Shown here one piece after another: positions 27,293 to 29,653 of a stretch of DNA of 64,000 nt (positions within the stretch are counted from its first letter, which is position 1; every line of letters begins with the position of its first letter). Under the pieces are notes generated by a model. The model worked only from the letters and a program-made list of their open reading frames with translations, made no database searches and had not been told where the DNA came from. The stretch comes from Escherichia phage teqdroes. The stretch lies in the sequence record NC_054932.1; one strand, 5' to 3'. The position numbers and the translations under genes are program-made.

Positions 27293-27601
27293 ATGAAACT
27301 GACAACTGAGCAGAAAGTAGCAATTCGTGAAATTTTGAAAACTAAATTGTCCATGGGTATTTCAAACGTGGTTTTTGAAAAGTCTGATGGTACTATTCGT
27401 ACTATGAAAGGCACCCGTGATGCTGACTTTATGCCAACTATGCAAACCGGTAAATTGACTGAATCTACTCGGAAAGAATCTACTGATATGATTCCGATAT
27501 TTGATGTTGAACTCGGTGCATGGCGAGGTTTTTCTATTGACAAATTGATTTCCGTTAATGGCATGAAAGTTGAGCATTTGCTTCAATTTATTGGTAAATA
27601 A
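27293..27601 (+). CDS. Hypothetical protein, 102 aa (31.1-like position)
   Basis: ORF track. Confidence 0.55.
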   Translation: MKLTTEQKVAIREILKTKLSMGISNVVFEKSDGTIRTMKGTRDADFMPTMQTGKLTESTRKESTDMIPIFDVELGAWRGFSIDKLISVNGMKVEHLLQFIGK

Positions 27602-27602
27602 A

Positions 27603-27627
27603 TGCTTTAAGAATTATTTGTTATTAT
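27603..27627 (+). promoter_or_regulatory. MotA-dependent middle promoter upstream of gene 31
   Basis: MotA box TGCTTTA 27603-27609, 12-bp gap, TATTAT 27622-27627. Confidence 0.5.
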
Positions 27628-27657
27628 TAATTCATCTGTTAACAAAAAGGAAAAACG

Positions 27658-27993
27658 ATGTCTGAAGTACAACAGCTACCAATTCGTGCTGTCGGTGAAT
27701 ATGTTATTTTAGTTTCTGAACCTGCGCAAGCCGGTGATGAAGAAGTTACAGAATCAGGACTTATTATTGGTAAACGTGTCCAAGGTGAAGTTCCTGAACT
27801 GTGTGTAGTTCACTCTGTTGGTCCTGATGTTCCTGAAGGTTTCTGCGAAGTTGGTGATTTGACTTCTCTTCCAGTTGGTCAAATTCGAAACGTTCCGCAT
27901 CCTTTTGTAGCTCTAGGTCTTAAGCAGCCAAAAGAAATTAAACAAAAATTTGTTACCTGTCACTATAAAGCTATTCCGTGTCTTTATAAGTGA
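27658..27993 (+). CDS. 31: Co-chaperonin gp31 (GroES analogue for capsid folding), 111 aa
   Basis: [61 protein letters not shown]... recognised as T4 gp31. Confidence 0.95.
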
Positions 27994-28001
27994 TATAAAT
28001 A
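27994..28001 (+). promoter_or_regulatory. Late promoter motif (TATAAATA) upstream of rIII
   Basis: TATAAATA directly after gene 31 stop, ~120 bp upstream of rIII ATG. Confidence 0.5.
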
Positions 28002-28119
28002 ATAATATGAATTGAGTTTCAATTCTATGTGGTAGTCTACAACTGAGAGATCTGTCGAAAGAAGATGAAATTCAGAAGAACGTGACTACCGAGTTTTAAT
28101 CTCTAACGAGAATTTTTAA

Positions 28120-28368
28120 ATGATTAAACAATTACAACACGCTCTTGAACTGCAACGAAACGCATGGAATAATGGTCACGAAAACTATGGCGCATCTATT
28201 GATGCTGAAGCCGAAGCTCTTGAAATCCTGCGTTATTTCAAACATCTGAATCCTGCTCAAACTGCATTAGCTGCTGAGCTTCAGGAAAAAGATGAACTTA
28301 AATATGCTAAGCCTCTGGCTTCTGCCGCACGAAAAGCAGTTCGTCACTTTGTGGTAACACTGAAGTAA
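28120..28368 (+). CDS. rIII: rIII lysis-inhibition accessory protein, 82 aa
   Basis: MIKQLQHALELQRNAWNNGHENYGASID... recognised as T4 rIII; 82 aa. Confidence 0.9.
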   Translation: MIKQLQHALELQRNAWNNGHENYGASIDAEAEALEILRYFKHLNPAQTALAAELQEKDELKYAKPLASAARKAVRHFVVTLK

Positions 28369-28562
28369 TTTATTGGAGAGTCACTGCCTTAGTGTGAAGT
28401 TAAAACGAGGAGCCGTCGAACTTTGTTTTACGGTGTACCTCTTGAATGTTGACGAGGTTTATGGTTATCCTGTCGGTAAATATTCAAAACCTAAGTACCC
28501 CTTGAGGGCTTGCGCAGGCAATGCCAATAAGTCCTGCATTTTCATTTAAAAGAGAATTTATA

Positions 28563-28739
28563 ATGGCAAAACAAGCTAAAGCAAAGAAAGCAGTTGAAAA
28601 GAAAGTTGGTGATTCTAAACGCGCTGGTTACAAGCGTGGGTCGAACTCTCGTATCAATCAAACTGTTGAGAAGATCATGCGCCGAGCACGTGCGGTTCTT
28701 CGAGATGATGCTTCTCGTTTTGGTAAGCAGAAAGCATAA
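28563..28739 (+). CDS. Small basic protein, 58 aa (30.9-like position)
   Basis: ATG at 28563 (MAKQAKAKKAVEKKVGDSKRAGYKRG...); track alternative start 28521; followed by UUCG hairpin terminator. Confidence 0.5.
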   Translation: MAKQAKAKKAVEKKVGDSKRAGYKRGSNSRINQTVEKIMRRARAVLRDDASRFGKQKA

Positions 28740-28742
28740 GTT

Positions 28743-28772
28743 AAGGACTCCTTCGGGAGTCCTTTTTATTTT
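28743..28772 (+). terminator. Intrinsic terminator (UUCG tetraloop hairpin + U-run)
   Basis: AGGACUCC-UUCG-GGAGUCCU followed by UUUUAUUUU. Confidence 0.75.
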
Positions 28773-28791
28773 CCAAAGATTGCACAAAGTT

Positions 28792-28821
28792 GTTTACAGT
28801 ATGGCTCCTTTGTGATAGTAT
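28792..28821 (+). promoter_or_regulatory. Early promoter (GTTTAC-N18-TAGTAT)
   Basis: GTTTAC 28792-28797, TAGTAT 28816-28821; inverted repeat CTCCTTTGTG...CAAAGGAG overlaps the downstream SD. Confidence 0.55.
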
Positions 28822-28848
28822 TATCTTACACAAACAAAGGAGAATAAA

Positions 28849-29217
28849 ATGAAAATCAATCTTAACTCATACATCAAAGGTAAAGACCACGACGGCTATA
28901 AAGCTATCGAAACTAAAGAACTTCAGTGGCACTTATACAAAGAACAATTTGAATTTGTAGGTTGCATGACTCCTGAAGGTCCTTCTGATGATTTCTCTTG
29001 GAAAATAATGTTAACTAACTTTTTTACTGGAGATACATACGAATTAAAAACTTTGATTCTTGGTAAAATTCGCTGTGAGACTTATGAAGATAAAGAAACT
29101 GGTTACTCTGAAGATGTTACGTGGTATCAAAATGGTCGTATTACCGCTGACCTCTTGATTGAAAAAATGAAAGCCAAAGGTGAATTAAATTTAGATAATT
29201 GGATTAAAGTTGCATAA
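28849..29217 (+). CDS. Hypothetical protein, 122 aa
   Basis: ORF track; SD AAGGAG; downstream of early promoter 28792-28821. Confidence 0.6.
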   Translation: MKINLNSYIKGKDHDGYKAIETKELQWHLYKEQFEFVGCMTPEGPSDDFSWKIMLTNFFTGDTYELKTLILGKIRCETYEDKETGYSEDVTWYQNGRITADLLIEKMKAKGELNLDNWIKVA

Positions 29218-29221
29218 AATA

Positions 29222-29250
29222 GTTTACTTTGGTACAGGATATGATATTAT
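29222..29250 (+). promoter_or_regulatory. Early promoter (GTTTAC-N17-TATTAT)
   Basis: GTTTAC 29222-29227, TATTAT 29245-29250; GGTACAGG...CCTGTACC dyad. Confidence 0.55.
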
Positions 29251-29287
29251 ATACCTGTACCGCAATTAAACATCTTGGAGAATAAAA

Positions 29288-29653
29288 ATGAATTACATCA
29301 ACTTTGAACGTAAATATGTTTCTAACGGTATTGCAGGTTCTATTGATACTATCTGCCTTTGGAAACATCAAAATGGATCAGTATGCGAAATTGAACAGTA
29401 TATGACTCCTAACTACGTTTATATGCGATTTGAAAATGGCATCACGGTTTCAATCACGAAAGAAGGTTCTTCTTTTAAAATCGCATTGGATGATGATTTT
29501 CGTCAACGCGATTTAGGGACTCATCCTTGCTGGAATGGCGTTAATCGCAAGCTTCTGGTTAAAACTTGGATTCGTCATATTCTGAGTAACAGAGCTAAAC
29601 CTGAGCATCTTGAAGCAATCTTTGATGTAGTTCTTAACGAATTTGATATTTAA
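29288..29653 (+). CDS. Hypothetical protein, 121 aa
   Basis: ORF track; SD GGAGA; downstream of early promoter 29222-29250. Confidence 0.6.
   Translation: MNYINFERKYVSNGIAGSIDTICLWKHQNGSVCEIEQYMTPNYVYMRFENGITVSITKEGSSFKIALDDDFRQRDLGTHPCWNGVNRKLLVKTWIRHILSNRAKPEHLEAIFDVVLNEFDI

Follow-up and report, generated by a model that had tools for sequence, protein, structure and literature searches.

The 38 nucleotides that directly follow the stop codon of rIII are, as judged by covariance-model score and alignment, homologous to the repeat found upstream of toxN in ToxIN loci, including those of conjugative E. coli plasmids. The spacer between rIII and 30.9 (28369–28562), which is 194 nt long and non-coding, is best explained as a mosaic of conserved RNA modules, the first of which is a single ToxI repeat without a toxin. 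The remaining modules are hairpins that are shared to varying degrees among T4-like phages (Table 1).

The window, meaning the whole 64-kb stretch of DNA that was analysed, is a segment of a Tequatrovirus. Positions 28000–28900 are 99.8% identical at the DNA level to Escherichia phage PinkRuby and to other annotated Tequatrovirus genomes. The + strand gene order is cd, 31.2, 31.1, 31, rIII, 30.9, 30.8 and onward. An earlier note on this DNA had singled out the gap after rIII as unusually long, and its 194 nt are indeed the longest among the 11 consecutive junctions from cd to 30.3, the other ten ranging from -14 to 126 nt. The corresponding spacer in T4 measures 244 nt. The same note had considered a start codon for the next gene at 28521, leaving a gap of 150 bp. 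This start is unsupported, since the start annotated in T4 corresponds to 28563 and the MAKQAK N-terminus is kept across distant genera in which the upstream DNA is unrelated.

A perfect T4 late promoter (TATAAATA) is located at 27994, upstream of rIII. It is the sole copy returned by the promoter scan, which found no such late promoter within the gap. Scans of the gap also gave no sigma-70-like promoter, no convincing MotA box and no + strand terminator. A weak hit on the − strand was the sole terminator-like call. The TTGACG at 28448 was rejected as a promoter, being without a -10 element at workable spacing. As the late promoter lies upstream of rIII and a strong terminator, also annotated in phage Ge15, follows 30.9, transcripts should cross the gap, and this terminator is likely to form their 3′ end. 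The ToxI-like unit begins 2 nt past the rIII stop and would thus be carried in the rIII 3′-UTR and 30.9 5′-UTR of the transcript. The terminator is directly followed by an early-type promoter for 30.8 (GTTTACA-N17-TAGTAT, the whole at 28743–28821), a pairing of stem-loop and early promoter as described for T4-type hyperplastic regions.

Table 1. Features of the rIII–30.9 region (positions in the window).
Feature	Position	Strand	Remarks
rIII	28120..28368	+	82 aa; TAA at 28366-28368; from the ORF list
Solitary ToxI-like repeat (pseudo-ToxI), UUAUUGGAGAGUCACUGCCUUAGUGUGAAGUUAAAACG	28370..28407	+	Covariance model R1
Hairpin 2, GAGG-AG-CCGU ... ACGG-UGUA-CCUC	28407..28441	+	
Hairpin 3 ("GGUUAUC" hairpin), then GUAAAUAUUCAAAAC	28444..28485	+	
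Small hairpin 4, CCCC-UUGA-GGG inside GUACCCCUUGAGGGCUUG	28498..28508	+	
Hairpin 5, GCAGG - CAAUGCCAAUAAGU - CCUGC	28514..28537	+	Just upstream of the 30.9 ribosome binding site
Purine-rich ribosome binding region of 30.9 and ATG 28563	28550..28565	+	
30.9	28563-28739	+	ATG at 28563
Intrinsic terminator 3′ of 30.9	28743..28764	+	Terminator scan: 9-bp stem and T run

Covariance model R1 was built from 22 repeats in 12 promoter–repeat–terminator loci. Downstream of the repeats, toxN was confirmed in six of the 12 loci, was decayed in four Arsenophonus loci and was not found in Photobacterium. When R1 was run against the 64-kb window with filters off, the unit after rIII was recovered at 40.0 bits (E = 1.1e-6), with the next best match in the 64 kb at 11.6 bits. 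The unit is identical to the ToxI of Pantoea and Idiomarina at 32–33 of 38 positions. In ToxI numbering, G2 of the unit is 28375 and G25 is 28396.

The pairing was assessed on an alignment of 34 distinct units, comprising 13 from ToxIN loci and 21 phage orphans. Pairs 9-25, 10-24, 11-23, G2-C15 and G3-C14 are formed in 100% of cells across the 34 units, and two of them covary, with pair 9-25 being either C-G or U-A and pair 10-24 either A-U or G-C. The score of the true pairing was not equalled by any shuffle or by any slid register. The U9-A25 pair of ToxI has been named previously (PMC3475682). All five pseudoknot pairs can be formed by the window unit.

It has been reported that G5, A6, U12, U22, G21, A19 and A20 are conserved in all E. 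coli ToxI clusters, the A19 and A20 adenines making A-minor contacts (PMC8860590). The window unit keeps G5, A6, U12, G21 and U22, and has a single A (CCUUAGUG) at the A19A20 position, where every compared repeat from a ToxIN locus has AA (CCGUUAAGUG). Its 3′ tail is A-rich, as in ToxI. The borders of the unit, marked here by a slash, read GUAAUUUAUU/GG and UUAAAAC/GAGG. They carry no A-rich ToxN cleavage motif (AA^AU or GAA^AU), through which ToxN could excise the unit; this ToxN subfamily may cut at another motif. AAAT occurs just once in the gap, at 28478. On the strength of the model score and the pairing, 28370–28407 is very probably a ToxI homologue.

The bacterial side of this homology was traced through the loci in which the repeat occurs in tandem (loci and contigs are referred to by L numbers). 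An exact-pattern scan of IMG/VR yielded two contigs, L015 and L016, in which the motif is repeated 3–4 times in tandem with a period of 37 nt; a terminator hairpin and then an ORF lie downstream of these copies. In L016 the copies are preceded by a TTGACG-N16-TATAAT promoter. The ORF of both contigs is ToxN according to Pfam (PF13958, E = 1e-37 to 1e-42), PADLOC (AbiQ) and the PDB (ToxN entries 7d8o and 2xd0). A scan of bacteria, with one genome per species, recovered the promoter–repeat–terminator–toxN layout from Vibrio sp. HA2012, Idiomarina abyssalis and Lachnospiraceae MAGs; Pfam confirmed the toxN of these loci. The promoter–repeat–terminator layout is accompanied by a decayed toxN in Arsenophonus, and on Pantoea agglomerans, Serratia nevei and E. 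coli plasmids the layout includes a toxin gene annotated as ToxN/AbiQ. As the same layout recurs in bacteria and plasmids, the motif is identified as a ToxI repeat unit. The 37-nt tandem copies, together with a faint resemblance to type I-F/VI repeats, had prompted the idea of a CRISPR-repeat mimic (an RNA anti-CRISPR), which was dropped once the copies were found to flank toxN. Vibrio sp. HA2012 has, outside the cassette and just downstream of toxN, one more ToxI-like unit, in which the A is single (ACUUUAGUG; L028 1127–1164).

A cognate ToxIN exists, plasmid-borne, in the host species of the phage. Six E. coli plasmid records carry a ToxN that is 79.6% identical to the Pantoea protein, and the IncF plasmid pRHB27-C20_4, the only E. 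coli plasmid for which the upstream DNA was read, has three repeats of the same subfamily (GGTGAGTCACTACCGTTAAGTGTGAAGTTAAAA...) upstream of its ToxN. A blastn search with the gap against 5,426 complete E. coli genomes returned no match, and the system is therefore rare. Against plasmids, the ToxI part of the gap alone was matched. The window-type repeat belongs to a ToxI subfamily other than the classic one of P. atrosepticum. The classic 36-mer, 100% identical to that of pECA1039, occurs in 49 Escherichia and 12 Salmonella plasmid records, mostly of small, mobilizable plasmids.

None of the other parts of a ToxIN system was detected around the window unit. A tblastn search of the 64 kb with two ToxN proteins gave nothing better than E = 4, no second ToxI-like unit of either subfamily occurs within the window, and scans of the gap and window revealed neither a promoter–terminator cassette of its own nor a tandem array. 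With no toxN and no second unit, the element is a toxin-less, solitary pseudo-ToxI and not a ToxIN system. A tRNA or tRNA-like gene was rejected, as ARAGORN reported none in the window, Rfam none in 27500–29500, and the hallmarks of tRNA are absent from the motif. A relationship to rnaC and rnaD, stable RNAs of T4, was likewise rejected, with blastn giving noise only and R1 scoring 5 bits on rnaD.

The covariance-model search of Rfam that had been proposed for the gap was carried out on 27500–29500 and gave no match within it. Rfam 15 also reports no family for the authentic ToxI arrays of pECA1039 (L084 901–1100), L015 and L016, even at E <= 1 to 10. Its silence on the gap is uninformative since it misses the authentic pECA1039 array as well, and Rfam-based screens will miss RNA of the ToxI type for the same reason.

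Conservation among T4-like phages, a further proposed check, gave a positive answer. A blastn search of about 50,000 phage records found the gap conserved in about 800 T4-like records and showed it to be composite: its bases 78–194 also occur in other T4-like phages, among them those of the Mosigvirus type. A ToxI-like unit is present no further than about 90 nt after rIII in 15–18 of the 40 T4-like loci retrieved via rIII, a recurrence that marks the rIII–30.9 position as a hot spot for units of this putative type. A unit of the second ToxI subfamily (subfamily 2) is found in the window, ime09, Ge15, Karamvirus KMB19 and L080. In T4 and its nearest relatives the allele (GGAGAUUCACUGCCUUAGUGUGAGCUAAAUC) is a mosaic and weaker, at 16.6–25 bits on R1, T4 itself scoring 16.6 bits, and the 3′ part of the T4 allele resembles classic ToxI. 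L053–L056 carry AGGUGAUUCGCUACCUUAAGUGCGGCUAGAAAA, with L054 identical to pECA1039 ToxI at 32 of 36 positions and with the U9C/A25G compensatory change that has also been described in PhiTE. A further allele, GGUGAUUUGCUACCAAAGUGCAGCUAGAAAU, is carried by L066, L067, L070, L072 and Klebsiella phage Mineola, and is identical to pECA1039 ToxI at 30 of 36 positions. This ToxI_Pa-type unit of L066 and Mineola matches 162 Klebsiella phage records, its position in the gap having been checked in Mineola alone.

The unit has been deleted in L049–L052 and L058, where hairpin 2 is kept, and the copy in L043 is disrupted. More distant T4-like phages have no gap between rIII and 30.9. Two IMG/VR contigs, L081 and L082 (97 kb and 149 kb; 1–2100), have a truncated rIII (residues 43–82) and a T4-type unit within an array of ~11 tRNA genes. 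The first tRNA after rIII starts with GGAGAUU, like the unit, which suggests recombination between the unit and tRNA genes. A T4-like allele (GGAGAGUCACUGCCUUAGUGUGAAGUUGAAC) also occurs at 345–382 of L024, a 1.2-kb contig assigned to a Phocaeicola MAG, probably through the mis-binning of phage DNA.

Outside the T4-like phages, bases 7–82 of the gap are about 85% identical to a stretch in the genomes of Phapecoctavirus, unrelated myoviruses of about 150 kb. The match, which holds both the ToxI-like unit and hairpin 2, fills the 93-nt space between tRNA-Gln and tRNA-Pro. When the Phapecoctavirus version was used as the query, the first 33–40 nt alone were matched in other phages. These copies lie between tRNA-Ile and tRNA-Met in a T5-like phage and between tRNA-Ser and tRNA-Lys in a Serratia phage of the Vequintavirinae; further copies occur in Vibrio phages and, within its own rIII–30.9 gap, in Karamvirus. 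The motif common to these copies can be written as GG(A/U)GAGUCACU(A/G)CC-N2-5-AGUGUGAA. The tRNA-array copies found in IMG/VR are always co-oriented with the tRNAs, and most are a few nucleotides from a tRNA end. Units close to the P. atrosepticum type are also found in such arrays. In the Roskildevirus Erwinia phage IT22 (L088 701–743), a near-perfect unit between tRNA-Ser and tRNA-Glu begins immediately after the CCA of tRNA-Ser with AUUC, the predicted 5′ end of mature ToxI (AA^AU cleavage). The T5-like Klebsiella phage pzk-kv23 (L089 701–773) has two near-perfect ToxI_Pa units after tRNA-Ile, followed by a partial tRNA.

ToxN is held in check by the ToxI repeats that bind it, and the shut-off of host transcription by a phage depletes the unstable ToxI and frees the toxin (PMC3475682, PMC10853763, PMC8860590). 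Studies on PhiTE have shown that escape phages express expanded pseudo-ToxI repeats that suppress ToxN, wild-type PhiTE with its 1.5 repeats being ToxIN-sensitive (Blower et al. 2012, PMC3475682). The PhiTE record JQ015307 annotates "pseudo-ToxI", and this kind of element is already known from that phage. Wild-type T4 is restricted by E. coli ToxIN (PMC9391042), and T4-like phages encode a protein inhibitor of ToxN, TifA (T4 gene 61.4) (PMC9391042, PMC10853763). No report of a ToxI-like element in T4, its relatives or phage tRNA arrays was found in the searchable literature, which is incomplete, so that an earlier description is possible. The Laub-lab papers on T4 and ToxIN make no mention of one, and a survey of viral type III systems from 2025 never describes antitoxin repeats as orphan, solitary or standalone.

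The window unit and the PhiTE pseudo-ToxI are both phage-borne, toxin-less, non-coding copies of a ToxI repeat. Both differ from host ToxI, including by a compensatory change at pair 9-25, and both are of low copy number in the wild-type form. PhiTE has 1.5 repeats of the P. atrosepticum type, whereas the window, from a T4-like phage, holds a single unit that belongs to another ToxI subfamily and is fused to a second conserved hairpin. With the ToxI of ToxIN loci (PMC8860590) the window element shares a unit of 36–38 nt and the GG...CC and C-A-C/G-U-G pairings, but it lacks the tandem array, the promoter–terminator cassette, toxN, A19A20 and the bordering cleavage motif. TifA has the same presumed target, ToxN, in the same phage group; it is, however, a translated RNA-binding protein encoded elsewhere in the genome, whereas the window element would be a non-coding RNA mimic. 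RNA anti-CRISPRs are solitary CRISPR-repeat units carried by phages. They offer a parallel in that each is a lone phage copy of a small RNA repeat bound by a host defence protein, but they address a different defence system, and the bacterial homologues of the window repeat flank toxN and not cas genes.

It is proposed that the unit acts as a decoy against ToxN. It would be transcribed within the rIII–30.9 message, initiated both at the 27994 late promoter and at promoters lying farther upstream. As infection halts host transcription, the unstable host ToxI would decay and ToxN would be freed to cut phage RNA. A ToxI look-alike made by the phage could then occupy the ToxI-binding groove of a ToxN of the matching subfamily and blunt abortive infection, in the manner of the amplified PhiTE pseudo-ToxI. 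Hairpin 2 may shield the unit against exonucleases on its 3′ side. Being single and slightly defective, the copy may give partial protection only; alternatively, it may serve as a seed that can be expanded or recombined under selection. Further downstream, hairpins 3–5 may influence how stable the 30.9 message is or how it is translated.

Whether the window unit performs this function at present is, in our estimate, evenly balanced. The decoy reading is favoured by the homology to ToxI, the 100% formation of the pseudoknot pairs, the PhiTE precedent, the restriction of T4 by ToxIN and the occurrence of TifA in T4-like phages. Selection is further suggested by the recurrence of the unit after rIII in alleles of two ToxI subfamilies, together with the single units between tRNA genes. 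Against a decoy stand the presence of a single unit, whereas most of the ToxI arrays examined have two or more repeats, and the ToxIN sensitivity of wild-type PhiTE (PMC3475682).

Other observations that count against a decoy also feed its main rival, namely that the unit is an evolutionary relic. According to this explanation, a ToxI repeat was captured from a ToxIN plasmid or another phage and is decaying neutrally in a recombination-prone spacer, with no present function. The degraded T4 allele with its score of 16.6 bits, the loss of the unit from five relatives that retain hairpin 2, the disrupted copy in L043, the missing adenine and border cleavage motifs of the window copy and the sensitivity of wild-type T4 to ToxIN (PMC9391042) would all fit such decay. 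The gap is also clearly plastic: the inserts that relatives carry in it measure 48, about 95 and about 200 nt. On the other hand, this same site is occupied anew in L054, and in L066 and Mineola, by near-perfect copies of another ToxI subfamily, all five pseudoknot pairs are kept, and units are found between tRNA genes in several unrelated phage lineages. Neutral decay is held to be a serious explanation, if a somewhat unlikely one.

A second rival takes the gap as an ordinary cis-acting mRNA element, in which the hairpins would act on the rIII transcript, through stabilisation, processing or weak termination, and would modulate the translation of 30.9, the resemblance to ToxI being irrelevant. 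The compensatory changes in hairpins 2, 3 and 5 speak for it. The CCGU/ACGG of hairpin 2 is replaced by CCGC/GCGG in Phapecoctavirus and by CCAU/AUGG in L046, L047 and L055, and among T4-like phages its inner stem varies compensatorily between G-C, G-U and A-U. T4 has its 48-nt insert in the loop of this hairpin, and the longer inserts of other relatives lie near it. Hairpin 3 is conserved across several Tevenvirinae genera with a conserved GUU..GGUUAUC loop, and lies directly upstream of the ToxI-like unit in Karamvirus and Jiaodavirus. RNAalifold analysis of 17 distinct sequences showed its pair 11-33 as AU in 9, UA in 7 and GC in 1, pair 12-32 as CG in 13 and GC in 4, and pair 15-29 as GC in 11 and AU in 2. 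The motif of hairpin 4, GUACCC(C)UU(C)GAGG(G/A)CUUG, recurs in many T4-like gaps at a varying position. In L057 and L071 the loop of hairpin 5 is nearly unchanged and its stem is altered from GCAGG/CCUGC to GAACUGG/CCAGUUC in a compensatory manner.

The location of hairpin 5 just upstream of the ribosome binding site of 30.9 also suits a cis-acting role. GGAG motifs are present at 28375 and 28409, and are presumably of the kind cut by T4 RegB. A cis-acting element would nevertheless leave the specific 40-bit match to toxN-linked repeats unexplained, and would not account for the same unit between the tRNA genes of phages that lack both rIII and 30.9. The fold of the whole gap is not unusually stable either (z = -1.2, not significant), so that the structural signal of the gap lies in covariation and not in energy. 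This explanation is improbable.

The guess of the earlier note that the gap might encode a structured leader or a small RNA holds in so far as conserved RNA-type modules with compensatory changes are present. It missed the ToxI identity of the first module, which as a solitary ToxI-type repeat points to anti-defence rather than to a generic leader.

It is very improbable that the gap encodes a small protein, either from its sole sizeable ORF (28373–28549, 58 aa, TTG start) or through an N-terminal extension of 30.9 from 28521, despite the open frame of 58 codons in the window phage and the hypothetical proteins annotated at the gap in some GenBank records: the homologous stretch in T4, L044, L047 and Ge15 has 5–8 stops in every forward frame, the substitution pattern tracks base-pairing and not codon structure, and the DNA upstream of 28563 is unrelated in other genera that share the 30.9 N-terminus. 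The ORF was rejected as coding on account of these stops, in agreement with the earlier view that the gap has no convincing ORF.

Returning to the decoy reading, its wider form can be put forward only tentatively. Solitary ToxI mimics could be a widespread and unrecognised RNA counter-defence of large virulent phages, with rIII–30.9 alleles in the Tevenvirinae that switch with the ToxIN types of the host and, elsewhere, units in tRNA arrays that are freed by host tRNA processing. The carriers of the latter kind may include T5-like phages, Vequintavirinae, Phapecoctavirus, Roskildevirus and several unclassified large viral contigs. In these arrays, the tRNA-processing enzymes of the host would release the antitoxin RNA without the need for cleavage by ToxN.

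ToxIN is among the best-studied abortive-infection systems, and T4 and E. coli ToxIN form a leading model for the sensing of infection by toxin–antitoxin systems and for phage escape. Should the element work, T4-like phages would be able to counter ToxN in two ways, by RNA as well as by the TifA protein. Its alleles would then track ToxIN subfamilies, which could aid the prediction of host range, and the tRNA arrays of other phage families would gain a new role in the delivery of decoy RNA. Even as a decaying relic, the unit records repeated exchange between defence plasmids and virulent phages. In either case, a previously unexplained piece of the T4 intergenic region is identified.

Two further RNA modules were encountered in the course of these comparisons. 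Many T4-like phages have a conserved insert of about 140 nt (GCGGCAAGUGCAUGCUACCCCGAGG...GGACCCGGACCC...AACGGUGUGCAACAGAUAAGAG) in the rIII–30.9 gap, which is absent from the window. It was found in L002 (about 1975–2140), L087 (about 935–1075), L052, L059, L061, L063–L065 and L077; Rfam returned nothing for it at E < 0.1, and it does not resemble rnaC or rnaD of T4. The gap between gene 31 and rIII in the window (28030–28095) contains a long hairpin, GGUAGUC...CUGUCGAAAGAAG...GACUACC, with an RNAfold energy of -16.6 kcal/mol. It is a further mobile module of intergenic RNA, found again 5′ of 30.9 in the Jiaodavirus-type loci L087, L066, L067, L069, L070 and L072, where its closing stem is changed in a compensatory manner to GGGAGC/GCUCCC.
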